64,000 nucleotides of DNA from Chloroflexota bacterium. GTDB lineage: Bacteria > Chloroflexota > Anaerolineae > J102. Under the pieces are notes generated by a model. The model was not told where the DNA came from. It did no database searches and saw nothing but the letters and a program-made list of their open reading frames with translations. Location of the stretch: positions 23,050 to 87,049 of the forward strand of contig JAYRVO010000064.1 of the NCBI GenBank assembly GCA_041918515.1, given 5' to 3'. The position numbers and the translations under genes are program-made. Of this stretch, positions 1,643 through 34,585 are shown in pieces; the first letter of the stretch is position 1, and every line of letters begins with the position of its first letter.

Positions 1643-1686
1643 GAGCCTATTCTAATCCAATGTATATACAATGTCAATCCTGTGAC

Positions 1687-2817
1687 ATGACGCCCACCTT
1701 CCAATCTCCAATCAACCAATCTCCAATCTCCCTCCTCCGCCCCGACATCGCCGGCATGGAAGAATACACGCCCGTGCAGCCGTTCGAGGTGCTGAGCGCA
1801 CGGTTGGGGCGCAGGCCCGAAGACATCGTCAAGCTCGACGCCAACGAAAACCCGTATGGCCCGTCCCCGCGCCTGCGTCAGGCGCTGGCCGAATTCCCGT
1901 GGTATCATATTTATCCCGACCCGCAGCAATTTGCCTTGCGCGACGCTCTTTCCCAATACACCGGCATCCCCACCGAATACATTTTACCCGGTCACGGCGC
2001 CGACGAGCTGCTTGACTATCTCTGCCGCCTCTTCCTCACTCCGGGCGACGCCATCATCAACTGCCCGCCTACCTTCGGCATGTACAGCTTCGACGCCAAG
2101 CTCAGCGGCGGGCGCGTGATTGATGTCTGGCGGCGTGACGATTCCAGCCTCGATGTCGAAGGCATCGAGCGGGCGGTGGCAGGCGAGCCGCGGGCGAAAC
2201 TGCTCTTCCTCACCTCACCGAACAACCCCGACGGCAGCCTGATCCCGCACGATGTGCTGCGCCGCCTGCTGCGCCTGCCCCTCGTCGTGGTCGTCGACGA
2301 AGCCTACATCGAGTTTGCGCCCGCTGATCAGTCCGTGGCCGCCTGGGTTCCCGACGCGCCGAATCTGGTCGTGCTGCGCACCTTCAGCAAATGGGCGGGC
2401 CTCGCCGGGCTGCGACTGGGCTATGGCATCTTCCCGGCGGAGATCATCGCACATCTGTGGAAGTTCAAACAGCCATACAATGTCAACGTCGCCGCCACCG
2501 TGGCCGGATTGATCAGCCTCGATGATTTGCCCTATTTGCGCACCCGCATCGATGCCCTCAAGACCGAACGCGACCGCCTCATTGCCGAACTCGCACACTT
2601 CCCCTTCCTCCGCCCTTTGCCCAGCCAGGCCAACTTCGTGCTCTGCCGCGTCGAGGGCCGCTCGGCGGTCGAGCTACACCGCCGCCTGGCCGAGCAAGGC
2701 ATCCTCGTCCGCTACTACGACAAGCCCGGTCTGCAGAACTGTATCCGCGTCAGCGCCGGCCGGGCGGAGGATACGGATAGGTTGTTGGCAAACTTGAAGG
2801 TAATCGACCATGTTTGA
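1687..2817 (+). CDS. hisC: histidinol-phosphate aminotransferase
   Basis: [27 protein letters not shown] and PLP-aminotransferase class II layout. N-terminus carries in-frame ccaatct repeats ([10 protein letters not shown]). Confidence 0.9.
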
Positions 2818-3163
2818 ACATAGCAGCCAACCCATGCTCTCGCGCCGGGATTTTGTCAAGCGCCAGCTGCTATTCGCTGCGCTGGCAATTACCGTGCTCC
2901 TGCTGTCACTCGCGATCGGCATTGTAGGCTATCACATAACCGAAGGGCTGAACTGGACGGACTCACTGCTCAATGCCTCGATGATCCTCGGCGGCATGGG
3001 GCCGGTGAATGACCTCAAAACTGAGGTTGGCAAGATCTTCGCCTCGTTCTATGCCTTGTTTTCGGGCATCGTCTTCTTGTTGGTGATGGGCATTTTCCTG
3101 GCCCCCGCCCTCCATCGCCTGCTCCACCGTTTGCACTTCCCGATCGATGAGGAATCGTCGTGA
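2810..3163 (+). CDS. small integral membrane protein, hypothetical
   Basis: 117 aa with two strongly hydrophobic segments. Start overlaps the hisC stop. No recognisable catalytic motif. Confidence 0.45.
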
Positions 3164-3209
3164 TCTCATTTCCCGTCATCCTCACCCGCGCACTTGGTGG
3201 AGAACTTTG

Positions 3210-3446
3210 ATGCCAACAGTTCTTCAGGACGGACCCTATACCTTTCTGTTCTTCAGTTCTGACGCCGGTGAACCCCCGCATATTCATGTCAAGCGCGATC
3301 GGCAGATCGCCAAGTTTTGGCTCACTCCGGTTTTCCTTGCCAAGAATCGAGGTTTTCGGGAACACGAATTGAACGACATACTTCGCCTTGTCGTCAAGCA
3401 CCAATCCTTTTTATTGGAGGCATGGCATGATTACTTTAGTGCTTGA
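3210..3446 (+). CDS. DUF4160 family protein
   Basis: MPTVLQDGPYTFLFFSSDAGEPPHIHVKRD..AKFWLTPV..LLEAWHDYF matches the DUF4160 pattern. Confidence 0.6.
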   Translation: MPTVLQDGPYTFLFFSSDAGEPPHIHVKRDRQIAKFWLTPVFLAKNRGFREHELNDILRLVVKHQSFLLEAWHDYFSA

Positions 3447-3732
3447 AGCTGAACCGACGGCGCTTAATGTCATTGTCAGCAATGATAAACTGATCGTTGA
3501 TCTCGCGGATGGCCGTACATTGGCAATTCCGCTTGAATGGTACCCGCGATTGCACTATGCCACCACCCAAGAGCGCCACAATTGGCAGTTTTTGGGCGAT
3601 GGCTATGCCATCGAATGGCCTGATCTGGATGAGCATATTGGCATCGAAGGATTATTGGCCGGGCGTCATAGTGGCGAAAGTGAACAATCCTTGCAGCGTT
3701 GGCTGCAATCTCGTCCTATGAGCCGAAATTGA
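3427..3732 (+). CDS. DUF2442 family protein
   Basis: Usual partner of DUF4160, with ATGA overlap. About 100 aa from MITLVLEAEP. Confidence 0.55.
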   Translation: MITLVLEAEPTALNVIVSNDKLIVDLADGRTLAIPLEWYPRLHYATTQERHNWQFLGDGYAIEWPDLDEHIGIEGLLAGRHSGESEQSLQRWLQSRPMSRN

Positions 3733-3734
3733 TC

Positions 3735-3795
3735 ATGCCTACCCTCACCCGCGCCACCACCGAAACCCAACTCGCCCTCTCGCTCGATCCATGCA
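3735..3795 (+). pseudogene. remnant duplicate of hisB 5' end
   Basis: ATG CCT ACC CTC ACC CGC GCC ACC ACC GAA.. encodes MPTLTRATTETQLALSLD, versus genuine his[20 protein letters not shown] at 4148. Followed by a stop and the MNT cassette. Confidence 0.45.
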
Positions 3796-3822
3796 TCTTC
3801 CTCAATAATTGCGAGGTGAATC

Positions 3823-4113
3823 ATGACAACTTTTGAAGTACTACACAACAGACGCGATGAAATTCTCCAACTCGCTGCCAAACATGGCGCCGCAGATGTG
3901 CGTGTTTTCGGCTCGGTTGCACGCCATGAGGACTCGCCGGAAAGCGATATCGATTTCGTGGTGCGTACACAAGCTGAGACAAGCCGGTGGTTCCCTGCTG
4001 GCCTGATTGTCGAACTCGAAAACTTGCTTGGCCGGCGGGTCGAAGTAGTGATTGAACGGGCGATTAGTCCTTACATTCGTGACCGCATTCTCTCTGAATC
4101 ACTTCCTCTATGA
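3823..4113 (+). CDS. nucleotidyltransferase (MNT-type, Pol-beta superfamily), orphan antitoxin-like
   Basis: VFGSVARHEDSPESDIDFVV is the GS..(D/E)h(D/E)h NTase motif. No adjacent HEPN partner. Confidence 0.7.
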   Translation: MTTFEVLHNRRDEILQLAAKHGAADVRVFGSVARHEDSPESDIDFVVRTQAETSRWFPAGLIVELENLLGRRVEVVIERAISPYIRDRILSESLPL

Positions 4114-4147
4114 AAGATGATACTGGCGCGGCAGGAGATAAAACCTG

Positions 4148-4735
4148 ATGCCAATCACCCTCACTCGCACCACCCGTGAAACCGATATCACGCTCTCGCT
4201 CGACCTGCACGGCAGCGGCCGGGCGCAGATCAACACAGGCATCGGCTTCTTCGACCACATGCTCACGCTCTTTGCCAGCCACGGCCTCTTCGACCTGACG
4301 GTGGAGGCGAAGGGCGACCTGCACGTGGACGAGCATCACACGGTCGAGGATGTCGGCATCTGCCTGGGCAAGGCCATCAGCCAGGGCCTGGGCGACCGGG
4401 CGGGTATCGTCCGCACAGCCCACAGCTATGTGCCGATGGATGAGGCACTCGGCTTTGTGGCGGTGGATTTGTCTGGCCGCCCGTATTGCGTGTTCGAGGC
4501 CGCCTGGCACACGCCGCGCATTGGTGGCCTGGGCACAGATTTGATCCACCACTTTTTCGAATCGGTGGCCATCCACGCCGCCATGAACCTGCACGCCCGC
4601 GTCCTCTATGGCCGCAACGACCATCATCAATGCGAAGCCCTTTATAAAGCCTTCGCCCGCGCCCTCGACGCCGCCACCCGCCAGGACCCCCGCCGCGTCG
4701 GCGTTCCTTCCACCAAAGGCACGCTGATTGCGTAA
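4148..4735 (+). CDS. hisB: imidazoleglycerol-phosphate dehydratase
   Basis: 195 aa. HisB motifs ([43 protein letters not shown]). Confidence 0.9.
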
Positions 4736-4736
4736 A

Positions 4737-4815
4737 CTGGTTATTGGTAATTGGTTATTGGCGATTGACCGCCAATAACCAATTACCAATAACCAATAAC
4801 CAATAACCAATAACC
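4737..4815. repeat. CCAATAA-family heptamer hairpin (inverted ggttattgg / ccaataacc arms plus a tandem ccaataa run)
   Basis: Seen directly: ggttattggtaattggttattggcgattgaccgccaataaccaattaccaataaccaataaccaataacc, between hisB and hisH. Confidence 0.85.
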
Positions 4816-4818
4816 ACC

Positions 4819-8660: not shown

Positions 8661-8750
8661 GTTGGTTATTAGTTATTGGTTATTAGTTATTGACGTTTTC
8701 TACCAATAACCAATAACCAATAACTAATCTCCAATAACCAATCCCCAATC
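8661..8750. repeat. CCAATAA-family heptamer hairpin between GNAT and hisF
   Basis: ggttggttattagttattggttattagttattgacgttttctaccaataaccaataaccaataactaatctccaataacc. Confidence 0.85.
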
Positions 8751-8754
8751 TCCC

Positions 8755-14945: not shown

Positions 14946-17900
14946 ATGTATTTCCGCCTTGAACTTACCCCCCGCCGCGGCCCGGACGACGGCCGCGCCA
15001 AAGCCACCCTGGCCACTTGCCGCGCCCTCGGCCTGACCGACCTCCCCCCCGTCGTCGTCTCCGACCTCTACTTCCTCGACGCCGACTTGTCCTTGCCCGA
15101 AGTCGAAGCCCTGGCCGCCACCGCCCTCCTCGACCCCGTCGCCGCCGAGCTTGTCGTTCAGCCACAGCCACAGCCATCGTCCATCGTCCATCGTCCATCG
15201 TCCGTCGAAATCACCTTCCTCCCTGGCGTCACCGACAGCGTGGCCGACAACCTGCTGGCGGTGGCGCACAGCCTGGGCTACGAAAACGTGCGGGCGGCGG
15301 CATCCGGCTTGAGCTACAGCTTCCTCGGCGAAGTCACCCCCACTGACCTCGACCACATCGCCCGCGACCTTTTGGCGAACGGCACCGTGCAACGCTATGT
15401 GATCGGCCAGCAGATTGCGCCGCCGTTCGTGGAAACGCACGAGCTGGCCGCGGGTGAGCGTTTGGTCGAGACCATCGCCATTCGAGATCAGGGCGAAACC
15501 GGGCTGCTCGCTCTCAGCCGTGAGCGCCGCCTCAGCCTCGATCTGGCAGAGATGCAAGCGATCCAGGCGTATTTTCGCAGTGAAGGTCGCGAGCCAACCG
15601 ATGTCGAGCTGGAAACCCTGGCGCAGACCTGGTCCGAGCATTGTGTGCACAAAACGTTTCGGGCGGAGGTGGAGTACCGGAGCGAGGAGGGAGATATCCC
15701 CGCTTCTTCGCCTCCCGTTTCCTCGCCTCTCCTCATCGACGGCCTGCTGAAGACGTATATCCGGGCAGCGACGGAGGCGGTGAATAAGCCGTGGGTGCGC
15801 TCAGCGTTTGTGGACAACGCCGGCATCATCGCCTTCGACGACACGTTCGACCTGGCCTTCAAGGTGGAAACGCACAACCACCCCTCGGTGCTGGAGCCGT
15901 TCGGCGGAGCGGACACGGGTGTGGGCGGGGTCATCCGCGACATTTTGGGCGTCAGCGCCAAGCCCATCGCCAACACCGACGTGCTCTGCTTTGGGCCGGA
16001 AGACTTGCCGGATGACAAACTCCCGGCCGGGGTGCTGCACCCGCGCCGCGTCGCCGCCGGGGTCATCCACGGCATCGAAGATTACGGCAACAAGATGGGC
16101 ATCCCCACCGTGAATGGAGCCGTGCACTATCATCCCGGCTACACCGCCAACCCGCTGGTCTATTGCGGTTGCCTGGGCATTTTGCCGCGCGGCAGCCACC
16201 GTTCGTTGCACGAAGCGCAGGCTGGCGACCTCATCGTCGCCATCGGCGGGCGCACGGGGCGCGACGGGCTGCGCGGGGCCACGTTCTCCAGCATGGAAAT
16301 GGATCACACCACCGGGGCCATCGCCAGCACCGCCGTGCAGATCGGCAACCCCATCGTCGAAAAGCAAGTGATGGAGGTGATCCTGCGGGCGCGCGACGCT
16401 AGGCTGTACAACGCCATCACCGACTGCGGCGCCGGCGGATTCAGCTCGGCGGTGGGCGAGATGGGCGAGCACGTGGGCGCGAGCGTGCAGCTTCAGGGCG
16501 TTCCGCTCAAATATCCGGGCTTGCAGCCGTGGGAGATTTGGCTTTCGGAGGCGCAAGAGCGCATGGTGCTGGCCATCTCGCCAGCCCATTGGCTGGCATT
16601 CCAGCAGATTTGCCGGGCGCACGATGTCGAAGCCAGCATCCTGGGCGAGTTCGATGGCTCCGGCCGATTGCGCGTGGCCTACGGCGAGACAATCGTGGCC
16701 GATCTCGACATGCACTTCCTGCACGATGGCGTCCCCCGCCGCCGCCTCACGGCCGTTTGGTCCCCGCCCGACCTGGCCAACCCCAACCCCGCCTCCTCGC
16801 CTCCTCCCCACCTCGCCTCCTCACTCCTCCGCCTCCTCGCCTCCGCCAACATCCGTTCGCGTGCCCCCATCATCCACCGCTACGACCATGAAGTCCAGGG
16901 CGGAACGGCTGTCAAGCCGCTAGTCGGGGTCGATCAGTGCGGGCCGAGCGACGCAGCAGTCGTGATCCCCCAACCGCTCCTCGCCTCCTCTTCCCCACCC
17001 GCAACTCGCCACCCGTTTCCCGCAGCCGTTTTGTCCGCCGGCCTCAACCCCCGCTACGGCCTCATCGACCCGTATGCTATGGCCTGGGCCTGCGTGGACG
17101 AGGCTTTTCGCAATGCCGTGACTGTGGGCGCTGACCCCGACCGTATCGCCATCCTCGACAATTTTTGCTGGGGCAACCCCAATCTACCCGACCGCCTTGG
17201 CGCGCTCGTGCGCTGCGCCCAGGGCTGTTTCGATGCTGCCATCGTTTATCAAACGCCTTTCATCTCTGGCAAAGATAGCTTGAACAATGAGTACATGGGC
17301 GAGGATGGCCAGAAGCACGCCATCCCCGGAACCCTGCTCATCTCCGCCCTCGGCATTGTCCCGGATGTGACCCGCACGACCACGAGTGACCTGAAAGCGC
17401 CCGGCGATTATCTTTATCTTTTGGGCGAGACTCGCCCCGAACTCGGCGGCTCGGCCTATCTCGACCTGCTCGGCGAAATCGGCACTTCCGTCCCCCAATC
17501 CTATCCTGCCCCGCTCGACCGCCTGCGCGCTCTGCACGGGGCCATCGCCGCCGGACTCGTGCGCGCCTGCCACGACCTCAGCGAAGGCGGGCTGGCCGTG
17601 GCCCTGGCCGAAATGTGCATCGGCGGCGGTTTGGGAGCGGAAATCAACCTGTCAAGCATTCCTCCCCAATCCTCAATAACCAATACCCAATTACTTTTCT
17701 CCGAATCCCTCGGCCGCTTCCTGATCGAGGTCGAGCCTGGCCATGCGGTCGAGTTCGAAGCGATGCTGGCAGGGCAGCCCGTGGCGTCGATCGGACGGGT
17801 GACCGCCGAGAAGAATATGGTTCTTGACGCTGGAACTGAGCGCGTCGAGGTCTCGATTGCCGACCTGAATCATGCTTTCTGTGGAGAACCGGCGCCATGA
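14946..17900 (+). CDS. purL: phosphoribosylformylglycinamidine synthase subunit PurL with N-terminal PurS-like extension
   Basis: 984 aa. PurL AIR-synthase-related domains (HKTFRAEVEY, ETHNHPSVLEPFGGADTGVGGVIRD, AIGGRTGRDG). Contains several in-frame low-complexity repeat inserts. Confidence 0.85.
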   Translation: MYFRLELTPRRGPDDGRAKATLATCRALGLTDLPPVVVSDLYFLDADLSLPEVEALAATALLDPVAAELVVQPQPQPSSIVHRPSSVEITFLPGVTDSVADNLLAVAHSLGYENVRAAASGLSYSFLGEVTPTDLDHIARDLLANGTVQRYVIGQQIAPPFVETHELAAGERLVETIAIRDQGETGLLALSRERRLSLDLAEMQAIQAYFRSEGREPTDVELETLAQTWSEHCVHKTFRAEVEYRSEEGDIPASSPPVSSPLLIDGLLKTYIRAATEAVNKPWVRSAFVDNAGIIAFDDTFDLAFKVETHNHPSVLEPFGGADTGVGGVIRDILGVSAKPIANTDVLCFGPEDLPDDKLPAGVLHPRRVAAGVIHGIEDYGNKMGIPTVNGAVHYHPGYTANPLVYCGCLGILPRGSHRSLHEAQAGDLIVAIGGRTGRDGLRGATFSSMEMDHTTGAIASTAVQIGNPIVEKQVMEVILRARDARLYNAITDCGAGGFSSAVGEMGEHVGASVQLQGVPLKYPGLQPWEIWLSEAQERMVLAISPAHWLAFQQICRAHDVEASILGEFDGSGRLRVAYGETIVADLDMHFLHDGVPRRRLTAVWSPPDLANPNPASSPPPHLASSLLRLLASANIRSRAPIIHRYDHEVQGGTAVKPLVGVDQCGPSDAAVVIPQPLLASSSPPATRHPFPAAVLSAGLNPRYGLIDPYAMAWACVDEAFRNAVTVGADPDRIAILDNFCWGNPNLPDRLGALVRCAQGCFDAAIVYQTPFISGKDSLNNEYMGEDGQKHAIPGTLLISALGIVPDVTRTTTSDLKAPGDYLYLLGETRPELGGSAYLDLLGEIGTSVPQSYPAPLDRLRALHGAIAAGLVRACHDLSEGGLAVALAEMCIGGGLGAEINLSSIPPQSSITNTQLLFSESLGRFLIEVEPGHAVEFEAMLAGQPVASIGRVTAEKNMVLDAGTERVEVSIADLNHAFCGEPAP

Positions 17901-18490
17901 CAACCGGATCACCATCCCCTGCCGGCCTGCCCATTCTGCTGTTCACGAACCCGCAAGAATGGGCCGATTGGCTCGACCGCTATCACGCCGATGCTGCTGG
18001 CGTGTGGCTACGCCTGGCGAAGAAGGCATCCAGCCTGACGTCCGTGACTTACGACGAGGCGGTGGAGGTGGGGCTGTGTTATGGCTGGATCGATGGCCAG
18101 AGCAAGCGCTATGACGCCGATTCATGGCTACAGAAGTTCACGCCGCGTTCGTCCAAGAGCATTTGGTCGAAAGTGAACACGCAAAAGGCGCAGAGACTGA
18201 TCGCAGAGGCCCGGATGAAACCGGCGGGGCTGCGGGAGGTGGAGCGCGCCAAGCAAGATGGACGTTGGGCAGCGGCGTATGACCCCCAGAGCACGGCTGT
18301 CGTTCCCGAAGATTTGCAGGTCGAACTCGACGACAATCCGGAGGCGAAGGCATTCTTCCAGACTCTCGACAGCCGCAATCGTTACGCCATCCTGTTCCGC
18401 ATCCAGACCGCCAACAAGCCCGAGACCCGCGTAAAGCGAATTCAGCAATTTATGGCCATGCTGGCGAAAGGGGAGAAGTTGTATCCATGA
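17897..18490 (+). CDS. YdeI/OmpD-associated family protein
   Basis: GVWLRLAKK..YDEAVEVGLCYGWIDGQSKRYDADSWLQKFTPRSSKSIWSKVN pattern. Overlaps the purL stop. Confidence 0.65.
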   Translation: MTTGSPSPAGLPILLFTNPQEWADWLDRYHADAAGVWLRLAKKASSLTSVTYDEAVEVGLCYGWIDGQSKRYDADSWLQKFTPRSSKSIWSKVNTQKAQRLIAEARMKPAGLREVERAKQDGRWAAAYDPQSTAVVPEDLQVELDDNPEAKAFFQTLDSRNRYAILFRIQTANKPETRVKRIQQFMAMLAKGEKLYP

Positions 18491-18555
18491 TACCCATCGC
18501 CATCCTCCACGCCCCCGGCACGAACCGGGACACCGACGCCGCTATCGCTTGTTAG
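18487..18555 (+). pseudogene. remnant duplicate of purQ 5' end
   Basis: ATGATACCCATCGCCATCCTCCACGCCCCCGGCACGAACCGGGACACCGACGCCGCTATCGCT is near-identical to the genuine purQ start at 19318 (MIPIAILHAPGTNRDTDAAIA vs MPPPPIAILHAPGTNRDTDAAIA). Terminated by TAG, then the TA cassette. Confidence 0.55.
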
Positions 18556-18981
18556 TTAGCCAGTCTTCCAAGCTTCGCTTAGGAAGCCACGTGGGGTGAC
18601 AATAGCAACGCCACGGAATGGATTGAGCCGAAGCAAATCACTATCTCCACTCACAATGCACTTTGCATTCCCACTGACCGCAAGCTCGATAAACTTATCG
18701 TCGCTAGGGTGACGGCAAGCTCGGATACGTTCGGCCGCTTCGATGAGTTTGGTTTCCCGCAGTAGCACAGCCAGGAATTCAAGTCGTTCCTCTTCACTTA
18801 CATACCTGGCAAAACCAGGACGCCCCAGCACTTCATTCAGCTCAGAGAGAGTCTCCACAGAAACGAGCAGATCACCATCGGCGATTGCTTTATCGAAAGC
18901 TTGACGTGGCAGCGAATGCTTCAATAAAGCTGCACCAACAACCGCATTCGTATCGAACACGAAACGTGGTCTAACGCTCAC
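18556..18981 (-). CDS. PIN domain toxin (type II TA system)
   Basis: RFVFDTNAVV..(acidic residues)..CIVSGDSDLL layout of PIN nucleases. 141 aa. Confidence 0.7.
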   Translation of the reverse strand: MSVRPRFVFDTNAVVGAALLKHSLPRQAFDKAIADGDLLVSVETLSELNEVLGRPGFARYVSEEERLEFLAVLLRETKLIEAAERIRACRHPSDDKFIELAVSGNAKCIVSGDSDLLRLNPFRGVAIVTPRGFLSEAWKTG

Positions 18982-19198
18982 GTAGCAACTCTTCGAGTTT
19001 TTCTTCAGTCAATCCACGTTCCATTGCTTTGTCACTCATTTCATCCATGATGTTGGCTAAAGAACTAGAACGAGTCGCGTATTCACGTAGCCAAAGATTC
19101 ATCAGCATCTGTAGTTTTGATTTGGTCTCTTTCGATGCCGAACGATAGGCTTGTGCTAATTCGGAATCGACTTGCAGTGTGACAGTGGCAAGCGCCAT
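18971..19198 (-). CDS. antitoxin (cognate to PIN toxin), start uncertain (19198-19246)
   Basis: Small ORF overlapping the PIN start by 11 nt (MALATVTLQVDSELAQAY...EEKLEELLRER). Confidence 0.5.
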   Translation of the reverse strand: MALATVTLQVDSELAQAYRSASKETKSKLQMLMNLWLREYATRSSSLANIMDEMSDKAMERGLTEEKLEELLRER

Positions 19199-19317
19199 TT
19201 CGTTTCGCTCCTGTAATCCATTTGAGGAACTCATCATGCTGTTCACATTATAGCACCCTCATCCTGGTCTCCTCAATTCCTCGCCCCTTCGCCCCCTCAA
19301 CTCCCTCGCCTCACCCC

Positions 19318-20136
19318 ATGCCCCCACCTCCCATCGCCATCCTCCACGCCCCCGGCACCAACCGGGATACCGACGCCGCCATCGCTTTCGAGCTGGCTGG
19401 CGGCAGCCCTGAAATCGTCCACGTCAACCAACTTCTCGCTGGCGAACGCCGCCTCGCTGACTACGCCCTGCTCGTCGTTCCCGGCGGCTTCTCGTATGGC
19501 GACGACCTGGGCGCGGGCAAACTGTGGGCCGTGCGCCTGCTGCACGATCTCGGCGAGCAGCTTCGTGCTTTTGCGGATGCGGGCAAACCCATCCTCGGCA
19601 TCTGCAACGGATTCCAGGTGCTGGTGAAGACGGGGCTGCTGCCGGGAGCAGGGGACGAAGGTGGCAAGTGGCAGGCGGCAATCTCCAATAACCAATCTCC
19701 AATAACCAATCTCCAACTCGCCACCCTCACCCGCAACGAATCCGCGCATTTCGAATGCCGATGGGTGTGGCTAGAGCCGAATGTTGCCAATCGTTCACCC
19801 TGGTTGGCCGGACTCGACCGCATCCATTGCCCGGTAGCGCATGGCGAAGGCAACTTCATGACCCGCGACGCCGCTGCACTCGATGCCATCCTGTCGCAAA
19901 ACCTCGTTGCCTTCAGCTATGTCGATGCCGATGGCCGCCCCGGCCCCTATCCGATCAACCCCAACGGCTCGGCCGCCGACATCGCCGGCGTGACGAACGC
20001 CAGCGGCAACATCCTCGGCCTGATGCCACATCCCGAAGACCATATCTTTCCCTGGCAGCACCCGGCGTTCCATCGCGGCACGGCCGGCTGTTCCGGTCTG
20101 AAACTTTTCCAGAATGGCGTCTCCATGACAAAGTGA
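19318..20136 (+). CDS. purQ: phosphoribosylformylglycinamidine synthase subunit PurQ (glutamine amidotransferase)
   Basis: IAILHAPGTNRD, GGFSYGDD, GICNGFQVL (Cys) and HPE motifs. Contains an in-frame ccaataacc/ccaatctcc insert ([17 protein letters not shown]). Confidence 0.85.
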   Translation: MPPPPIAILHAPGTNRDTDAAIAFELAGGSPEIVHVNQLLAGERRLADYALLVVPGGFSYGDDLGAGKLWAVRLLHDLGEQLRAFADAGKPILGICNGFQVLVKTGLLPGAGDEGGKWQAAISNNQSPITNLQLATLTRNESAHFECRWVWLEPNVANRSPWLAGLDRIHCPVAHGEGNFMTRDAAALDAILSQNLVAFSYVDADGRPGPYPINPNGSAADIAGVTNASGNILGLMPHPEDHIFPWQHPAFHRGTAGCSGLKLFQNGVSMTK

Positions 20137-20212
20137 CTGGGTGACAAGGTGACAAGGTGATCGCAGCGACATCACCTTGTCACCTTGTCACCTTGTCACC
20201 TTGCCACCGTAT
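20137..20212. repeat. GGTGACAA-family octamer hairpin
   Basis: gtgacaaggtgacaaggtgatcgcagcgacatcaccttgtcaccttgtcaccttgtcacc, a perfect inverted arrangement. Confidence 0.85.
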
Positions 20213-20236
20213 CAAGCAACCCAAGGATCTCCCACC

Positions 20237-21508
20237 ATGACTGTCACCGCAATCGTCGGCGCCCAATGGGGCGATGAAGGCAAAGGCCGCATCATCGACA
20301 ACCTGGCCCAGCAGGCCGATGTCGTCATCCGCTTTCAGGGCGGCGACAACGCCGGCCACACCGTCATCAACCAGTTCGGCAAACACGCCCTCCATCTCGT
20401 CCCCAGCGGCATCTTCAACCCCGCCACCCAAAACATCATCGGCACGGGCTGCGTCGTCAACCCGCAATCGCTGTTGGCCGAGCTGGAAGGTCTGACCGCC
20501 GCTGGGGTCAACCTCGATAACCTGTGGATCAGCTCCCGCGCTCAAATGCTGCTGCCCTATCATCGCACGCTGGATGTGCTGGAAGAAGGTGCGCGGGGCA
20601 AAGACACCATCGGCACCACCAAGCGCGGCATCGGCCCGGCCTATGCCGATAAATCCGCTCGCGCGGGCTTGCGCATGGGCGACTTGCTCCAACCCGATTG
20701 GCTGGAATCCCGGCTGGATAGCGCACTCGGCAGCGTCAACCGCAAGCTGCAAATCCTGGGCGGCGAACTTATCGACGGCTCGGAATTGTACGCGTTGTGC
20801 CTGGAGTTCAGAGAAAAGCTGGGGCGACGGATCATCGACACCGTCCCCATGATCCGCCGTTCGCTCGAAATCGGCGCCGACATCTTGCTGGAAGGCCAGC
20901 TCGGCGTCATGCGCGACCTCGATTGGGGCATCTACCCCTATGTGACCAGCAGCAACCCCACTGCCGCCTATGCCGCCAGCGGGGCCGGACTGCCCGCCCG
21001 CTGCATCGACCGCGTCATCGGCGTCGTCAAAGCCTACAGTACGGCTGTGGGCGACGGCCCCTTCCCCACCGAACTGCACGACGCCGACGGCCAGAAACTG
21101 CGCGAGATCGGCCAGGAGTTCGGGGCCACCACCGGCCGGCCCCGGCGCTGCGGCTGGTTCGACGGCGTGGCCATTGGTTATGCCGCCTGGCTTAACGGCA
21201 TGACTGGCCTGGCCATCACCAAGCTGGATGTGCTCGACGCCTTCGAGACGATCAAAATCTGCACGGGCTACCGCCTGCCTTCGGGCGAGATCATCACCGA
21301 TTCCATGCCCGCCACCCCCACGCTCTACCAAGTCACGCCGGTGTACGAAGCCTGGGACGGCTGGCTGACCTCGACCGCCGACTGCCGCCGTTGGGACGAT
21401 CTGCCCAAGCAGGCGCGGGCCTACATCCACCGCCTGAGCGAATTGGCCGGGATCAAGGTCGATTATGTGTCCGTCGGGCCGGAGCGGGAGCAGATGTTTG
21501 CGGTTTGA
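20237..21508 (+). CDS. purA: adenylosuccinate synthetase
   Basis: [21 protein letters not shown] and [10 protein letters not shown] motifs with GTP-binding elements. Confidence 0.92.
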
Positions 21509-21568
21509 CCCACCGCCTGCGACGGGATAGAATGCGAGTAATCGGAATTTCGGAAATCAGGAGGAGCT

Positions 21569-21847
21569 ATGGCCACTGACACGATTCAGATGCGCGCCAA
21601 GGGCAGCATCACCATTCCAATTGAATATCGAAAGAAATATGCGCTCGAGGAAGGTGATGTGTTTACACTCGTAGATCTCGGAGATGGAAGCTTCGTAATC
21701 GTGCCGCGCGTATCATTACTGCCGAAACTAGTGGCTGAACTCGAAGCCATTCGCGAGGAAGCCGGCGTCACGGTCGAGGATCTATTGGCTGATGTTCCCA
21801 AATACCGCCAACAGATCTACGAGGAACGCTATCGTGGGCGGTTCTGA
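21569..21847 (+). CDS. AbrB/MazE/SpoVT-type antitoxin
   Basis: IQMRAKGSITIPIEYRKKYALEEGDVFTL swapped-hairpin pattern. AGGAGG ribosome-binding site. Confidence 0.6.
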   Translation: MATDTIQMRAKGSITIPIEYRKKYALEEGDVFTLVDLGDGSFVIVPRVSLLPKLVAELEAIREEAGVTVEDLLADVPKYRQQIYEERYRGRF

Positions 21848-22295
21848 AACGAACGCGCCGCGTATCTTCTTTGACACTTCTGTCGTGTTGGCCTGCGCGT
21901 TTTCAAAGAGGGGTGCCAGCTATGTTCTAATCGAGCTGGCAAACCTCACGCTGATCGAAGGGCGTATTTCGCCTGACGTGCGTGAGGAGGTGTTGCGCAA
22001 TGCTCCTTCGAAGATGCCTGCGGCTATGCCTGCCTTGCGCTCGATCCTTTCCGAATATCTGATCGAAGGTCCGGCGCCATCGGCTGAAATGCTGATCACG
22101 ATGCGCGGCTATGCTGACGTCAAAGATGTCCCCATCCTGGCGGCAGCGATCGAGCAGAGGTGTCGGTACCTGGTGACGCTGAACGAGCGCGATTTTTGGC
22201 CGCCCTCAACTTTGATCACAATTGTGCGCCCGGGCGATCTGCTCTCGGCTATTCGGAAGCAGGTTGGTACGTTGATCATGGGAAATGATTTGTAG
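21834..22295 (+). CDS. PIN domain toxin
   Basis: GTG start overlapping the antitoxin stop. [19 protein letters not shown] acidic residues. Confidence 0.6.
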
Positions 22296-22496: not shown

Positions 22497-22730
22497 ATGG
22501 AACGGGTTAAGGTCAGTCTAACGCCCCCGCTAAACGAATTTCTTAGCCGCCACGCATTCTACGGCTTCTCGGATAAGAGCGCGATGGCCCGCGCCGCTTT
22601 GTCTCGCCTGAAAGAAGAGATTGAGTTGCAGCTTCTGCAGCAATCCGCCGATCTGTATGCTGAGGAGTATGAAGATGATCGGGAATTGCAGGAATTGACG
22701 AAAGCGGCGCTGGCAGGATGGCCAGAATGA
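22497..22730 (+). CDS. RHH/CopG-like antitoxin (MazE-type partner)
   Basis: MERVKVSLTPPLNEFL... AGGAGG 8 nt upstream. ATGA overlap with mazF. Confidence 0.5.
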   Translation: MERVKVSLTPPLNEFLSRHAFYGFSDKSAMARAALSRLKEEIELQLLQQSADLYAEEYEDDRELQELTKAALAGWPE

Positions 22731-23083
22731 GCGCCCTGCGACGGGGGATGGTGGTCGAGGTCGATCTCGATCCGACGCTTGGTTCGGAGACAGGGAAGAC
22801 GCGGCCATGCGTGATCGTGACGAACGATGTCTACAACGAACGCGTGCCTGTGATTCAGGTTGTTCCGATCACGGCCTGGAGCGAGAACAAGGGCCGGATC
22901 AGGACGAACGTCGAGCTATTCCCCAGTTCTGATAACGGCTTGACGAAACGGTCGGTGGCCGATTGTCTGCAAACTCGTCCGGTCGATCATCGCTTGCGAT
23001 TGGTCGCCATTCTGGGTGAGCTAACAAAAACAGAAATGGGGCAGATCGATGAGGCACTAAAAGTCATATTTGCGCTAAAATGA
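22727..23083 (+). CDS. mazF: MazF/PemK family endoribonuclease toxin
   Basis: [30 protein letters not shown] is the MazF/PemK signature. Confidence 0.75.
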
Positions 23084-23215
23084 GCGAGCTGGCCGGAATC
23101 AAGGTCGATTACGTGTCGGTGGGGCCGGAGCGAGAGCAGATGTTTGCGGTATGACCGACCACTCCACCTACCTCTCCCCCTTCACCTGGCGCTATGGCTC
23201 CGACGCCAGTCGCTT
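23084..23215 (+). repeat. copy of purA 3' end fused (ATGA) to a purB-like 5' start ([19 protein letters not shown])
   Basis: gagcgagctggccggaatcaaggtcgattacgtgtcggtggggccggagcgagagcagatgtttgcggtatgaccgaccactccacctacctctcccccttcacctggcgctatggctccgac. Confidence 0.8.
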
Positions 23216-23308: not shown

Positions 23309-23551
23309 ATGGTGCGCAAAATCTTCCGAACCGGCAACAGCATGGTCATCGCCCTGCCCAAAGAAATGCTCGATCCCCTTCGTCTGGGCGAAGGCGCCGA
23401 GGTGGATGTGCAGTTCGACCGCGCCCGCGGGGTGATCACCGTCTCGCCAGCGCCGGTGATGGTCAAAGGCGTGGATGAGGATTTCGCCCGGCAGGTCAGC
23501 GAGTTCATCGACCAATACCGTCCTGCCCTGGAAGCTCTGGCGCGGGCATGA
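23309..23551 (+). CDS. AbrB-type Phd-like antitoxin
   Basis: MVRKIFRTGNSMVIALPKEML. ATGA overlap with doc. Confidence 0.55.
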   Translation: MVRKIFRTGNSMVIALPKEMLDPLRLGEGAEVDVQFDRARGVITVSPAPVMVKGVDEDFARQVSEFIDQYRPALEALARA

Positions 23552-23931
23552 TCTATCTCTCGGTCGAGCAAGTACTGTTCGTCCACATGCGCTTGATCAG
23601 CGAGATTGGCGGTAGCCCTGGCATCCGTGATCTGGCGCTGCTGGCATCGGCAGTGGCTCGACCGCAGGCTATTTTTGGCGGCCAGTACCTCTATCCCGAC
23701 CTGGCCAGCAAGGCGGCGGTGCTCATGGATTCGCTGATGCGCAACCACCCTTTTATCGATGGCAATAAGCGAGTGGGAATCACGGCCGCCAGCTTGTTCC
23801 GGCAATTGAATGGCTACAGATTGACCGCATCCTCTGCCGAAGTCGAACTCTTCACCCTCCAGGTTGCCCGCTCGGAACTGACGCAAGTGCAGATCGCCGC
23901 CTGGTTTCGCTCTCACGGCGCCGCAAATTGA
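23548..23931 (+). CDS. doc: Doc (death-on-curing) toxin, Fic/Doc family
   Basis: HPFIDGNKRVGITAASLF Fic/Doc motif. 127 aa. Confidence 0.8.
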   Translation: MIYLSVEQVLFVHMRLISEIGGSPGIRDLALLASAVARPQAIFGGQYLYPDLASKAAVLMDSLMRNHPFIDGNKRVGITAASLFRQLNGYRLTASSAEVELFTLQVARSELTQVQIAAWFRSHGAAN

Positions 23932-23990
23932 CCGACCACACCACCTATCTTTTCCCTTTCACCCAGCATTGCGGCTCCGATGACATGCCT
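23929..23990 (+). repeat. degenerate copy of purB-like 5' start
   Basis: tgaccgaccacaccacctatcttttccctttcacccagcattgcggctccgatgacatg. Confidence 0.6.
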
Positions 23991-24074: not shown

Positions 24075-24431
24075 ATGTCGCAAACGAACGCCACAGGAAC
24101 ACACCCTGTTCGCTACACTCCCTCTCCAACCGTCGAAACGCTACGCGAGGCAGCGCCCAGCTTTTGGGCGGATTTGACTCGCGCACACATGATATTGCAG
24201 GAGGCGGGGTGTACTGATATCTACGTCTTTGGGTCGCTGGTTAGCGGGCGGGCGCGTTCGGATTCAGATATCGATTTAGCGGTGCGGGGTTGCCCTAAAG
24301 GTAAGTTCTTCCATTTGCTTGGACAGCTCATGTTCCAGTTGGAGCATCCTGTGGATTTAGTCGATCTTGATGGGAATCACTCGTTTGCCGAATTCCTGGA
24401 GAGAGAAGGGGGCCTGGTGCGAATTGAATGA
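24075..24431 (+). CDS. MNT nucleotidyltransferase antitoxin (Pol-beta superfamily)
   Basis: YVFGSLVSGRARSDSDIDLAV NTase motif. Confidence 0.7.
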   Translation: MSQTNATGTHPVRYTPSPTVETLREAAPSFWADLTRAHMILQEAGCTDIYVFGSLVSGRARSDSDIDLAVRGCPKGKFFHLLGQLMFQLEHPVDLVDLDGNHSFAEFLEREGGLVRIE

Positions 24432-24894
24432 GAAATTTGTATCTCAGATTCGTTTTGAAGTTGGGGAAATCGAACACCTGATCGTCGCCTATGCAGAGTT
24501 GCTGGCGACATCTGTCAGCACGATGCCAGATCAGGTGCACCTTGCTGCTTTGGCGGCAGTCTTGCATTCGTTTTATTCTGGCGTGGAGCGGATTTTTCTG
24601 ACCATCGCCAATTCGATTGATGGCATGACGCCTACAGGACAGCAGTGGCATCGTGATTTGCTCGCACAAATGACCATTGCCACTCGACATCGTCAGTCGG
24701 TTTTGTCAACTGGAGCAGCGGCGCACTTACGCGACTACTTGGCATTTCGTCACTTCTTCCGACATACGTACTCGTTCTATCTGGATTGGGATGAGATGGC
24801 AGAACTTGTGCGAATGCTACCAGCGGTTTGGGCAGAGACGAAAGGGGACATCGAACACTTTCTCACAACGATTGATCTACCACACAGGCCGTGA
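24425..24894 (+). CDS. HEPN domain toxin (HepT-like), probable TTG start overlapping MNT stop
   Basis: Adjacent and overlapping an MNT gene. Alpha-helical ~155 aa protein with an R(x)4-6H-like region (RHRQSV..RHFFRHT). Confidence 0.55.
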
Positions 24895-24940
24895 GAGTGG
24901 ACCACACCACCTACCTCTCCCCCTTCACCTGGCGCTACCA
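24893..24940 (+). repeat. short copy of purB-like 5' start
   Basis: gtggaccacaccacctacctctcccccttcacctggcgcta. Confidence 0.6.
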
Positions 24941-25018: not shown

Positions 25019-25312
25019 ATGATCAACCAGGTGACACTCACTTCGCCGCGGCAGCGCCCACTCAAACCACTCATCGAAGCGGCGTTGAACAGCGAGATGC
25101 GACTTCTGCAAACCGCCATCCAACGCACCGAACGACATCTGCAGGAATTCGAGGTCGCTTATGGCATGACGAGTGACGAATTTGTGCGGCGTTTTGAAAA
25201 CGATGACTTGCCAGAAACGCTCGACTTCGTCGACTGGATCGGCGAGTATCGGCTCTTGAACCGGTTGAGCGATAAAGCAGATGCCTTCATGGAGATCAAG
25301 TTTGCTCATTGA
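25019..25312 (+). CDS. hypothetical protein (first gene of unassigned two-gene cassette)
   Basis: 98 aa. AGGAG ribosome-binding site 8 nt upstream. Overlaps the next ORF. Confidence 0.4.
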   Translation: MINQVTLTSPRQRPLKPLIEAALNSEMRLLQTAIQRTERHLQEFEVAYGMTSDEFVRRFENDDLPETLDFVDWIGEYRLLNRLSDKADAFMEIKFAH

Positions 25313-25691
25313 CGTCTACTTTCGCCAGATCGCCGAGCTAATCGAAAATTGTGCGATCGTGCAGTCAGCGAATGTCGCCTACGACAAACGGGGCAGGTAT
25401 GAGGGATATATACGCGGGGAAATCTATTTTGTCGATGGCTCAGTTCTCCATCTTCGTGAATTCATCGATGTGGAATCCGAGGTGGAGCGCCTTACCTATG
25501 CCTACCAATACATGAACGCCAACCAGGCATTGATATTTCGCTATGACAACACGGGGCACCATCGGAGACTTCTGTTGCCCACCCATCCCCATCACAAGCA
25601 TGTTGGTGGCGAGACCACCGTGATTGCCTCGTCCGCGCCTCATCTCGCCGAAGTGCTCGATGAAATCCTGATGTCAATGACCTGGACCTGA
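25281..25691 (+). CDS. hypothetical protein (second gene of unassigned cassette, putative TA-like)
   Basis: About 130 aa. Overlaps the upstream gene. No motif I can assign. Confidence 0.35.
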
Positions 25692-25957
25692 TGACCGACC
25701 ACACCACCTACCTCTCCCCCTTCACCTGGCGCTGCGGCTCCGACGACATGCGCCAGATTTTCTCCGAAATCCATCGCCGCAAGCTGTGGCGGCGGATTTG
25801 GGTGGCGCTCTCGCCCAGACCCTGCAAGATTTGGGGGTCGATTGGGAAGAAATCCGCCGGGCGCGGGCCTACATCCACCGCCTGAGCAAACTGGCCGGGA
25901 TCAAAGTCGATTACGTGTCCGTCGGGCCAGAGCGGGAGCAGATGTTTGCGGTTTGAG
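25691..25957 (+). pseudogene. chimeric fragment: purB-like 5' end (~50 codons, frameshifted) joined to purA 3' end
   Basis: [38 protein letters not shown], then (after a 1-nt shift) [49 protein letters not shown]-stop. The N-terminus resembles E. coli PurB (SP.DGRYG...IFSE...VEVRWL). Confidence 0.55.
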
Positions 25958-27413: not shown

Positions 27414-27426
27414 ACTTGCTCCTTGT

Positions 27427-34582: not shown

Positions 34583-34585
34583 ACC

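Follow-up and report, generated by a model that had tools for sequence, protein, structure and literature searches.

What kind of process puts small toxin-antitoxin (TA) cassettes at the ends of genes for histidine and purine biosynthesis in a Caldilineales (Chloroflexota) bacterium, and leaves beside these cassettes a short copy of the adjacent gene's end? We addressed this in a 64,000-nt stretch of its DNA (the window; features are listed in Table 1). The original prediction, made from this sequence, held that one architecture recurs at three loci: a duplicate of a gene start, then a cassette, then the intact gene. The recurrence at several loci was borne out, and the third locus proved larger than claimed, with purA followed by five TA cassettes among repeated purA 3' and purB 5' ends.

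Cassettes and gene-end repeats at three loci

The cassettes are horizontally acquired small units, mostly type II/VII TA operons with their own promoters. Their GC content is about 50-58%, vs 63-70% for host genes, and by Pfam or NCBIfam their cargo falls into the families PIN_3, PemK, Fic/Doc, HepT-like_2, TumE, BrnT, MazE/AbrB, MntA, TumA and DUF4160/DUF2442. All cassette ORFs belong to TA or DUF families or have no family match. Adjoining small antitoxin and toxin genes of known families identify TA modules, with TA activity predicted from the gene families; the MNT gene at hisB stands without its toxin. Direct repeats of 30-100 nt, corresponding to the start or the end of the adjoining host gene, bracket the cassettes, one copy lying within the intact gene and the other being a dead remnant beyond the cassette. 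The repeats differ between loci, with lengths of 33 (hisB'1), 38, 55, 58, about 63, 74 and 89-99 nt.

Table 1. Features of the hisB, purQ and purA/purB loci (window coordinates)
Position	Strand	Feature	Evidence
2810..3163	+	117-aa membrane-protein gene, native upstream neighbour of hisB	gene order in L081, L084
3160..3192	+	hisB'1, candidate older remnant of hisB start	aligns with hisB 5' ends of L084 and L081
3210..3732	+	cassette Ca: DUF4160 gene (about 3210-3446), DUF2442 gene (3427-3732)	Pfam PF13711 1.5e-16, PF10387 5.4e-21
3735..3789	+	hisB'2, hisB 5' duplicate	alignment to hisB start 4148-4205; ATG start
3823..4113	+	cassette Cb: orphan MNT (MntA-like nucleotidyltransferase antitoxin)	Pfam NTP_transf_2/Polbeta; NCBIfam MntA below cut-off
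4110..4121	+	probable HepT 5' stub (MKDD) overlapping MNT stop	L152 HepT starts MKDDKVYLQ in equivalent ATGA overlap
4148..4735	+	intact hisB (imidazoleglycerol-phosphate dehydratase)	PF00475 homologues
17897..18490	+	YdeI/OmdA gene inserted between purL and purQ, ATGA overlaps at both ends	Pfam OmdA 1.9e-23
18487..18555	+	purQ' remnant ORF, repeat core 18493-18550	55/58 identical to 19330-19387
18556..19317	-	PIN toxin 18556-18981, partner antitoxin 18971-19201, promoter-like site 19276-19247	PIN_3, TIGR00305, promoter scan
19318..20136	+	intact purQ, repeat core 19330-19387	sequence analysis
20177..21518	+	purA; repeat copy c1 21412-21518 (last ~100 nt and 10 nt past stop)	repeat family D6, alignment
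21569..22295	+	C1: AbrB/MazE-type antitoxin, PIN toxin	Pfam; purA-C1 arrangement orthologous in L150
22302..22400	+	purA 3' remnant c2	92% identical to c1
22497..23083	+	C2: antitoxin, MazF/PemK toxin	Pfam PemK 3.1e-25
23081..23213	+	J', native purA/purB junction fragment: purA 3' remnant c3 23081-23154, ATGA overlap, purB 5' remnant c1 23151-23213	families D6, D7
23309..23931	+	C3: AbrB-type antitoxin, Doc/Fic toxin	Pfam
23929..23990	+	purB 5' remnant c2, most decayed copy	repeat alignment
24075..24894	+	C4: MNT and HepT (HEPN) pair	Pfam Polbeta; HepT-like_2 9.2e-33
24897..24937	+	purB 5' remnant c3	37/37 identical to c4
25019..25691	+	C5: TumA-like antitoxin, TumE toxin	Pfam TumE 5.9e-23; NCBIfam TumA below cut-off
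25691..25956	+	array-end mosaic: purB codons 1-40 25691-25809, internal purB piece 25811-25865, purA 3' copy c4 25860-25956	repeat alignment

Two relatives (L081 and L084) have hisC, the 117-aa gene and hisB in this order, with stop and start overlapping and with neither cassette nor duplicate. The window's 117-aa gene, which matched no Pfam or NCBIfam family, is followed by a short segment, hisB'1, that retains the native GTGA overlap with the 117-aa stop and is identical at 25/32 positions to the hisB start of L084, the best match in the window to that query. Given its length of 33 nt, we regard hisB'1 with moderate confidence as a hisB 5' remnant at the native junction. The original prediction had missed this segment. 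Cassette Ca, with a GC content of 0.50, is missing from L081 and L084.

The hisB 5' copy predicted upstream of the orphan MNT gene is present, and alignment places it (hisB'2) at 3735-3789. It matches the hisB start with 79% identity over 47 ungapped nt (repeat family D15), or at 43/55 positions with one in-frame 3-nt gap; DNA-level BLAST did not report the match. The concern attached to the prediction, that such similarity might not exceed the background for GC-rich sequence, was not realized: this segment is an extreme outlier over the window background. Across the whole window and both strands it is the top non-self match to the hisB 5' end, with a DNA score of 27 vs 15 for the next best (background 7.4 +/- 2.1) and a peptide score of 54 vs 34. 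It sits 413 nt upstream of the hisB start copy with the register unchanged. Its short ORF extends to 3836, overlapping the MNT start, and its peptide shares RATTETQ with a functional HisB allele (P0005).

The MNT gene has a homologue in L152 (72% identical) located between hisC and a HepT gene. The four codons at the MNT stop that match the L152 HepT start, and only these four, are probably the leftover start of a deleted HepT toxin gene. The intact HisB has 7963 homologues with PF00475, at identities up to 94% (the source record itself excluded), and the N-termini of hisB'1, hisB'2 and hisB are unequal in length. An independent Logan assembly (L151) is 100% identical to window positions 823-4384, so that the his structure is not tied to a single assembler.

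At purQ, the relatives L001 and L002 have purL adjoining purQ, with the YdeI/OmdA gene absent and no duplicates; in the window no purQ remnant is evident between purL and YdeI. The purQ 5' copy expected ahead of the minus-strand PIN/antitoxin pair is there, with the near-identical core given in Table 1. It had been thought to run from the first codon, which was right as to the presence of a copy and wrong as to its start: the first codons differ (ATGATA vs ATGCCCCCACCT) and the repeat proper begins at about codon 5. This remnant is read from an ATG overlapping the YdeI/OmdA stop (ATGA) and terminates at TAG 18553-18555. The PIN/antitoxin cassette has a GC content of 0.495, and its antitoxin gene found no family match. 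L150 also has this cassette adjoining purQ (81% nt identical over 1597 nt), together with an orthologous purQ remnant with an identical inner boundary. Two purQ copies in L005 flank 263 nt in which no plus-strand ORF of at least 60 aa was called.

Downstream of purA, the purA 3' end and the purB 5' end each recur in four copies that separate the five TA cassettes. Orthologues of C2 occur immediately 3' of purA in L143 and L147-L149, and orthologues of C3 immediately upstream of intact purB in L001, L143 and L147; the purB part of J' is identical at 56/56 positions to the intact purB start of L143. The window array is an L150-type purA-C1 joined to an L147-type purA-C2-remnant, and comparison with L150 gave no resolution of microhomology at the C1/c2 joint. 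Intact purB does not follow the mosaic at the array end.

Searches for mobility machinery were negative. Pfam found no integrase or transposase gene in the cassettes, and no recombinase was seen next to the arrays, which are bounded by hisC/hisB, purL/purQ and purA/URO-D-like genes, or among the ORFs of the 64-kb window screened by Pfam or by eye. Cassette ends have no terminal inverted repeats, and the repeats have no attC-like hairpins (single-strand folding z of -1.1 to +1.8, both strands). No tRNA genes were found in the window, and a search for Rfam families there was negative.

Empty sites, linkage and evolution of the repeats

That the cassettes are insertions, as originally predicted, is supported by relatives that keep the genes adjacent and have neither cassette nor duplicate: L001 and L002 at purL-purQ, and L081 and L084 between the 117-aa gene and hisB. 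The hisB and purQ 5' ends are single in relatives and present in two or three copies in the window. A duplicate with nothing inserted, which would have spoken for the opposite, was not seen among the relatives, the nearest case being L005.

L143 and L145, with flanks 99.9% identical, show a presence/absence polymorphism exactly at a 74-nt repeat. L145 has a single copy of this purA 3' segment, and L143 has two, around a 424-nt insert that carries a truncated MazF. L145 is the exact product expected from a crossover between the two L143 copies; the polymorphism can be read either as gain or as loss. Toxin decay accompanies cassette loss, as seen in the truncated MazF of L143 and in the loss of HepT from the window MNT.

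Across genomes a cassette keeps one particular gene end while its opposite flank varies. The PIN/antitoxin cassette stays with purQ; on its other side the window has YdeI/purL, and L150 an unrelated gene on the minus strand. C1 (window, L150) and C2 (L143, L147) directly follow purA, and C3 directly precedes purB (L001, L143, L147). In L088 the 3' end and terminator of an unrelated, methylase-like gene are present in three copies around two TA cassettes. This was the only clear further case from a scan of metagenomes with the PIN toxin; many repeats around the PIN genes of metagenome contigs were dispersed intergenic (L090) or possibly attC-like (L105, L108, L109), not gene ends. The closest PIN relative in the metagenome collection was 67% identical and the closest MNT 72%, and that scan yielded no donor; nor did we find a donor molecule, circular junction or near-identical cassette elsewhere. 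Repeat searches around the 276-aa gene of L082 stayed at background level, as did those around BrnTA (window, L137) and HicAB (L137), and no duplicates were detected at AbrB/Doc (C3) in L001 and L143. Since BrnTA, HicAB in L137 and these C3 cassettes, which lie in the same operons, are without them, repeats are not an obligatory product.

Repeat copies within each genome evolve in concert, sharing genome-specific substitutions; in L150 the two purQ copies match at 76/76 positions, although the unit as a whole has only 81% identity to its window counterpart. Copy-to-copy differences are rare at second codon positions, numbering 10, 1 and 23 at positions 1, 2 and 3 (P=3e-4 against in-situ decay). 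We first took this bias as proof that the remnants had been imported from other alleles, and downgraded it after concerted evolution was seen, because conversion by the functional copy accounts for the bias just as well. Given this homogenisation, a gene end that was imported and a true target duplication converted afterwards cannot be told apart by their alleles. The left 25 nt of the right copy in L143 diverge far too much to have been freshly copied from a target with 99.9% identity to L145. The gene starts at hisB appear to be different alleles and not copies of one target, because the N-termini differ in length and hisB'2 matches the functional allele P0005. Native junction pieces hold the innermost position, namely hisB'1 with its GTGA overlap and J' with purA 3' and purB 5' ends joined by ATGA, and this order of remnants fits a stepwise stacking of cassettes.

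Origin of the insertions

The original prediction invoked a mechanism aimed at gene 5' ends or translationally coupled junctions. Recurrence at gene ends stands, but the pattern is confined neither to 5' ends nor to such junctions; 3' ends are used too (purA and the unrelated L088 gene). We consider a gene-start-targeting mechanism less likely than homology-driven recombination combined with survivorship, because 3' ends are also duplicated, the repeats vary by locus, and no recombinase, inverted repeat or hairpin was found. Homology with survivorship is favoured because only integration through a terminal gene fragment leaves the gene intact.

The direct observations from which we start are the repeats, the empty sites, the polymorphism, the concerted evolution, the absence of mobility genes and the constant linkage of cassette and gene. 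The best explanation for them, which we hold to be somewhat probable, is that host homologous recombination integrates DNA in which a cassette is linked to the gene end of a conserved neighbour, with no dedicated recombinase taking part. The cassette would travel physically joined to the end of its conserved neighbour, and would enter a related cell or loop out as a circle through its own repeats. Host homologous recombination would then pair the incoming gene-end segment with the resident gene, either by a single Campbell-type crossover of a circular molecule or by a one-sided homologous anchor with an illegitimate join opposite; we infer the topology of the incoming DNA, as we do the dependence on RecA and the role of addiction. 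The product would be an intact gene, a cassette and a truncated gene-end copy. Integration through an internal fragment would wreck an essential biosynthetic gene, and the apparent targeting of gene ends would arise because only terminal-fragment integrations survive. Repeated rounds would stack cassettes outward from the native junction. The repeats would remain recombinationally active, being homogenised by conversion and able to delete the cassette cleanly, and toxin addiction would resist such loss until the toxin decays. Several points count against this explanation, among them the failed search for a donor, the two readings of the L143/L145 polymorphism, the masking of allele origins by homogenisation and the cassettes without repeats. 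Stretches of 33-60 nt at 80-95% identity are, moreover, inefficient substrates for homologous recombination, and hisB'1 measures just 33 nt; and the first origin of each unit of cassette plus gene end still requires an illegitimate event outside the homology model. On balance our results suggest that TA cassettes bracketed by gene-end repeats can move without a dedicated recombinase.

A possible objection is that these are true insertions with long target duplication, in which an enzymatic or repair process inserts a free cassette and both repeat copies come from the target. Staggered double-strand breaks 30-100 nt apart might capture foreign DNA by end joining and then be filled in, or a transposase might act in trans, with later gene conversion and allelic replacement yielding the present sequence patterns. 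We judge this rather unlikely. It agrees with one copy at the empty site and two at the occupied site and with repeats that are long and variable, like those of restriction-modification cases, and the demonstrated homogenisation could hide the origin of the repeats; that the window and L150 have the same inner boundary is compatible with one ancestral event, whatever its nature. However, the TA toxins here are RNases or translation inhibitors, and the cassettes encode no agent for double-strand breaks. The outer repeat edge lies at or near a gene terminus at every locus, for which random staggered cuts need a survivorship argument too, and each cassette is tied to one gene across genomes, with no new targets seen. 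The differing N-terminal lengths at hisB and the diverged left 25 nt in L143 also speak against fresh target copies. A related reading is that the clade has a dedicated trans-acting cassette-acquisition system, independent of integrase and attC, that places promoter-bearing TA cassettes at conserved gene termini with 30-100-bp target duplications; this would in effect be an integron-like platform with host gene ends as attachment sites, and we think it distinctly unlikely.

Alternatively, an integrase encoded elsewhere in the genome might act by site-specific recombination, integron-like or akin to that of cis-mobilisable elements, as with SXT in prfC, the gene-end repeats being attL/attR mimicked by the cassettes. 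Tandem promoter-bearing TA cassettes do resemble chromosomal integron arrays, the window and L150 share the inner boundary, and PIN-cassette relatives in L105, L108 and L109 are flanked by 100-180-nt repeats that are candidate attC sites. Yet the repeat is different at each locus (hisB, purQ, purA, purB, the L088 methylase-like gene), measuring 33-99 nt with differing inner boundaries; the repeats have no hairpin potential, and no integrase lies beside the arrays or among the screened window ORFs. We consider this reading very unlikely. Scarcely credible, finally, is a local origin without horizontal transfer, in which slippage duplicates gene ends and cassettes land later, or an explanation by chance similarity or mixed-strain assembly artefact. 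The source is probably a metagenome-assembled genome, and the hisB repeat is weak at the DNA level, but the hisB' copy is far outside the window background and its structure recurs in an independent assembly. No relative has duplicates without an insert between them, and assemblies from other samples (L150, L143, L147) contain orthologous units of repeat, cassette and repeat. A de Bruijn path, moreover, should be unable to re-enter the second variant from the right flank without a real junction.

Known systems and implications

The closest known pattern comes from restriction-modification gene complexes, for which insertion with long target duplication has been described (Nobusato et al. 2000, Gene 259:99; Furuta, Abe and Kobayashi 2010, PMC2853133). 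The direct repeats there are > 30 bp, of variable length and single-copy at the empty site, and some overlap gene 3' ends; double-strand breakage by the restriction enzyme was suggested to drive insertion (Nobusato et al. 2000; PMC2853133). Our loci likewise have a small addiction-type unit without a mobility gene, inserted relative to a close relative. The insert is missing from relatives with alignable flanks (L145 for L143; L001, L002; L081, L084), a sequence single-copy at the empty site is doubled around it, and the repeats exceed 30 bp and are variable (33-99 nt). The cargo here, in contrast, consists of TA modules and not of a restriction-modification complex, and restriction-enzyme breakage cannot apply because TA toxins do not cut DNA. 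Further differences are the tandem arrays in biosynthetic operons, the repeats that are always gene termini and the documented concerted evolution of repeats.

Rhs/CDI loci and the T6SS immunity arrays of Vibrio cholerae form orphan arrays by sequential displacement (Kirchberger et al. 2017, PMC5361080), the mechanism proposed for the T6SS arrays being homology-facilitated illegitimate recombination (PMC5361080). Entry through homology with a conserved neighbour and outward displacement of older modules with gene-end remnants would be shared with our loci, where purA 3', purB 5' and hisB 5' remnants lie between displaced cassettes. The modules of those systems, however, are variable ends of a conserved toxin gene with an immunity gene, whereas here unrelated, self-contained TA operons stand beside housekeeping genes (hisB, purQ, purA, purB), on the 5' or the 3' side.

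Chromosomal integrons also hold arrays of small cassettes, often TA modules, with repeated elements between them, and TA modules are thought to stabilise these arrays. They differ from our loci in that no intI or attI was found by the arrays in the 64-kb window, the repeats are host coding sequence without attC hairpins, and the cassettes have their own promoters. The minimal mobile elements of Neisseria comprise varied cassettes in one interval between conserved genes, exchanged by homologous recombination in the flanks. Cassettes at our loci and at such core-gene-flanked hotspots similarly vary by strain between conserved genes, but double-crossover exchange of the Neisseria type leaves no duplicated gene ends and stacks no cassettes. 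SXT/R391 integrates into prfC at its 5' end, where the original gene start is displaced and the element provides a functional replacement. The likeness lies in the insertion at a gene 5' end; SXT/R391 spans 100 kb and carries a tyrosine integrase of its own and a 17-bp att core, whereas the units here measure 0.4-0.9 kb and have no integrase. Site-specific and cis-mobilisable elements differ more generally, since we found no common att core, fixed boundaries or integrase, and IS, MITE and transposon insertions differ in that our cassettes have no terminal inverted repeats and duplications of 33-99 nt, not of a short fixed length. We found no description of TA cassettes with this architecture in the literature searched, a search beyond whose reach most subscription journals lay.

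How chromosomal TA modules move is an old open question; they have clear signs of horizontal transfer yet usually no mobile-element signature. The loci described here offer a concrete, testable answer: 30-100 nt of a linked conserved gene end may be enough for host recombination to carry, stack, homogenise and cleanly lose a cassette. If dedicated machinery exists instead, it would be a new type of cassette platform. If host recombination is indeed the answer, TA systems would join restriction-modification systems as cases of insertion with long target duplication, and a restriction enzyme would no longer be required to explain it. It would also explain why TA modules pile up within essential operons, and gene-end pseudo-fragments next to small operons of low GC would serve annotators as a simple signature of such hotspots in metagenome-assembled genomes.

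Cassettes and gene-end repeats in the his operon

The source organism belongs to the Caldilineales (Chloroflexota), the taxon name attached to PurA sequences 94-95% identical to its own; among species-level genomes of the collection searched, L001 and L002 come closest (PurQ 74% identical). The original prediction was of a gene-start duplicate, a toxin-antitoxin (TA) cassette and then the intact gene. We found this architecture at the his, purQ and purA loci, in a pattern far more extensive than predicted. The hisB and purQ duplicates both exist where they had been placed, and the MNT and PIN identities agree with Pfam and NCBIfam. Empty sites in L001, L002 and two further relatives, L081 and L084, mark the cassettes as insertions; cassette GC is 50-58%, against 63-70% for host genes.

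Features of the window discussed in the text
Feature	Coordinates	Strand	Remarks
BrnT/BrnA cassette	1048-1642	minus	between hisD and hisC
hisB'1, first hisB remnant	3160-3192		directly after stop of 117-aa gene; found by alignment to relatives
DUF4160/DUF2442 pair	3210-3732		between hisB'1 and hisB'2
hisB'2	3735-3789		peptide MPTLTRATTETQLALSLD
MNT	3823-4113		Pfam, NCBIfam
hisB start, counterpart of hisB'2	4148-4205
BioY and Fic-domain genes	5555-6887		between hisH and hisA
83-nt tandem repeat	14560-14929		4.5 copies, 97% matches
purQ' repeat	18493-18550
PIN toxin	18556-18981	minus	Pfam, NCBIfam
Sigma-70-like promoter	19276-19247	minus	upstream of PIN operon
purQ counterpart of repeat	19330-19387
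purA	20177-21508		five TA cassettes downstream
C1			AbrB/PIN; downstream of purA
C2			antitoxin/MazF; downstream of purA
C3			AbrB/Doc; downstream of purA
C4			MNT/HepT; downstream of purA
C5			TumA-like/TumE; downstream of purA
J' (purA|purB junction fragment)	23081-23213		within the array
Mosaic at array end	25691-25956
185-aa ORF	27427-27984	minus	in low-GC stretch 27200-28490
Adenylosuccinate-lyase-family gene	39334-40725	minus	14 kb off
Single copy related to 100-nt unit	56622-56707		86-88% identical, 3.6 kb distant
100-nt tandem repeat	60210-60548		3.4 copies, 98% matches

The hisB'2 remnant is 79% identical to the hisB start over an ungapped 47 nt, or 43/55 once a single in-frame 3-nt gap is allowed. 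BLAST reported no match between them at the DNA level, the divergence being too great, and we therefore took the opening 60 nt of hisB and scored it against all 120-nt tiles of both window strands. The remnant scored 27, the next unrelated match 15 and the tile background 7.4 +/- 2.1 (peptide-level score 54, against 34 for the next); being so far above the next unrelated match in the window, the repeat is real. The other remnant, hisB'1, retains the native GTGA stop/start overlap with the 117-aa gene, which is the gene preceding hisB in relatives. The locus thus holds two stacked cassettes and two hisB remnants, in the order 117-aa gene, hisB'1, DUF4160/DUF2442 pair, hisB'2, MNT, hisB. In L081 and L084 (HisB 90-93% identical) hisC, the 117-aa gene and hisB follow one another with stop and start overlapping. 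Window positions 823-4384 are matched at 100% identity by L151, assembled independently from a sequencing run.

In the relative L152 an MNT gene 72% identical to that of the window lies between hisC and a HepT gene, of which the window retains the first four codons; the window MNT thus appears to have been orphaned by deletion of its toxin gene. With HicAB between hisC and hisB in L137, a 276-aa gene there in L082 and MNT/HepT in L152, this interval is a hotspot. The BrnT/BrnA cassette, on the opposite strand, is kept at the same place in L137 (4653-5250; HisB 91% identical); gene-end repeats are not detectable at it in either genome, and it is either an older or a repeat-free insertion. The BioY gene and the 268-aa Fic-domain gene are also present in L084 (2856-4179) and missing in L081 and L137; hisH-hisA is another variable interval of the operon.

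The purQ and purA loci

The two purQ copies are identical at 55/58 positions. That the first codons of purQ are copied was only partly borne out: the purQ' ORF starts at an ATG overlapping the YdeI/OmdA stop and its opening codons do not match purQ, which places the start of the actual repeat at about codon 5. The partner protein of PIN matched no Pfam or NCBIfam family; the promoter found by scanning would fit a self-transcribed PIN operon. In L001 and L002 purL adjoins purQ, without YdeI, PIN or duplicate. The purQ'-PIN/antitoxin-purQ unit recurs in the relative L150 (81% nucleotide identity over 1597 nt) with the same inner boundary and an entirely different upstream neighbour. A purQ 5' duplicate (53 nt, 96% identity) is also found in L005, a Caldilineaceae metagenome-assembled genome with PurQ 61% identical; there, over 416-3911, a low-GC 1009-aa gene lies between purL and purQ, then the duplicate, followed by 263 nt without a called plus-strand ORF of at least 60 aa. 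L005 is an independent case, its insert between the repeats lacking a recognisable gene.

The cassettes downstream of purA are interspersed with gene-end copies: four of the purA 3' terminus, that of the intact gene included (74-99 nt), and four of the purB 5' terminus (38-119 nt). Fragment J' preserves part of the native purA|purB junction: 74 nt from the end of purA run through an ATGA overlap into 63 nt from the start of purB. The last element of the array is a mosaic made up of purB codons 1-40, a ~55-nt internal purB piece and a purA 3' copy; intact purB is absent after the array in the window, whereas canonical purB follows it in relatives. The distant lyase-family gene (357 bits against the TIGR00928 purB cut-off of 326; 32% identity to L001 PurB) may or may not be a purB replacement. 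Across genomes each cassette keeps to a single gene end: C1 directly follows purA in L150, C2 does so in L143 and L147-L149, and C3 directly precedes intact purB in L001, L143 and L147; the window array can be read as an L150-type purA-C1 joined to an L147-type purA-C2-remnant.

Other repeats occur in the window. The 83-nt units, without an Rfam match, lie in the low-GC sequence that separates the IMPDH gene from purL and extend as far as the purL start; the 100-nt units, beside a glmS-like gene, each contain an inverted segment. Microsatellites with 7-8-nt units (CCAATAA, CTCTCCG, CAAGGTGA) lie at 4738-4816, 8662-8761, 19671-19729, 34487-34597, 41492-41579 and 60037-60175, mostly in intergenic spacers, the third inside the purQ ORF; several are long palindromes (e.g. 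4738-4795), and such runs are apparently characteristic of spacers throughout the genome of this organism. The 185-aa ORF, without a Pfam match and between URO-D-like and hydrolase-like genes, may be another inserted gene.

Exchange between the repeats

Genomes L143 and L145 encode the same PurA protein, with both flanks 99.9% identical. The L143 insert, 424 nt with a C2-type antitoxin and truncated MazF, is bracketed by a 74-nt purA 3' repeat that is single in L145, exactly the product expected of a crossover between the two L143 copies. The gene-end repeats are active in recombination. The 58-nt purQ core matches at 55/58 and 56/58 positions within genomes, against 51/58 and 48/58 for corresponding copies between genomes; copies of one genome have genome-specific substitutions in common (window versus L150), and the L150 copies are mutually identical (76/76) though the whole unit is old. 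The purA 3' copies show the same within-genome likeness (window versus L143 and L147).

Differences between remnants and intact copies of purQ, hisB and purA number 10, 1 and 23 at codon positions 1, 2 and 3, a skew incompatible with plain decay of pseudo-copies in situ (P=3e-4) and predicted where functional copies repeatedly overwrite the remnants or exchange sequence with them. Three sites distinguish the window purQ copies; at these the remnant agrees with L150, and the three changes, all synonymous, are in the functional copy. The purB copies, none of them part of an intact gene in the window, lack this skew, with 5, 10 and 9 differences at the three positions.

The pattern recurs in another lineage (L088), where the 3' end and terminator of a methylase-like gene occur in three copies around two TA cassettes, one homologous to the window PIN cassette. 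PIN cassettes at the metagenome loci L105, L108 and L109 lie in arrays with flanking repeats of 100-180 nt (78-86% identity), which may be integron attC sites rather than host gene ends.

Origin of the arrangement

Pfam found no recombinase or transposase among the cassette ORFs, and the rest of the window encodes routine metabolic and housekeeping functions. Cassette ends lack inverted repeats, neither strand of the gene-end repeats is unusually prone to fold into hairpins, and the 64-kb window has no tRNA genes or Rfam matches. These cassettes are not an integron, an IS or MITE, or an integrase-borne island. Site-specific recombination fits the data poorly and is very improbable; slippage, chance or artefact, also a poor fit, is scarcely credible.

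The architecture shares four of five criteria with the "insertion with long target duplication" of Kobayashi's group and departs from it in cargo, always a restriction-modification system there and TA cassettes here; we found no published description of TA cassettes so arranged in the literature accessible to search. Breakage by the restriction enzyme, suggested as the driver of those insertions (PMC2853133), is inapplicable to the RNase-type and translation-inhibiting toxins here. A true long target duplication, by staggered breaks or an unknown enzyme and with later conversion, is the main rival, and we consider it unlikely.

We lean towards integration by host homologous recombination through the gene-end segments, the most economical account. 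A cassette beside a conserved gene would carry along a piece of that gene's end, which on incoming DNA would pair with the resident copy of the gene. One crossover of a circularised fragment would leave intact gene, cassette and truncated remnant, and so would homology anchoring one side while the other is joined illegitimately. Host recombination alone would suffice for this natural insertion-duplication. It would place native junction pieces innermost and newer cassettes beside the intact gene, and would give three hisB starts differing in N-terminal length, one gene per cassette, homogenised repeats, and polymorphism of a cassette with a decayed toxin. It leaves unexplained the first arrival of each cassette beside its gene, and no circle or donor DNA was observed. 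Nor does it account for the purL-purQ spacers of other Chloroflexota contigs (L004 2399-2446, L010 9916-9987, L032 6347-6435), which hold copies (48-90 nt, 75-85% identical) of segments internal to purQ or purL.

Of the original prediction, the repeated architecture and the inserted status of the cassettes stand, and the dedicated targeting of gene 5' ends or coupled junctions does not. Under host recombination, gene-internal fragments would disrupt the gene, and in the essential his and pur genes only integrations of terminal fragments would survive, giving the appearance of targeting to 5' and 3' ends.
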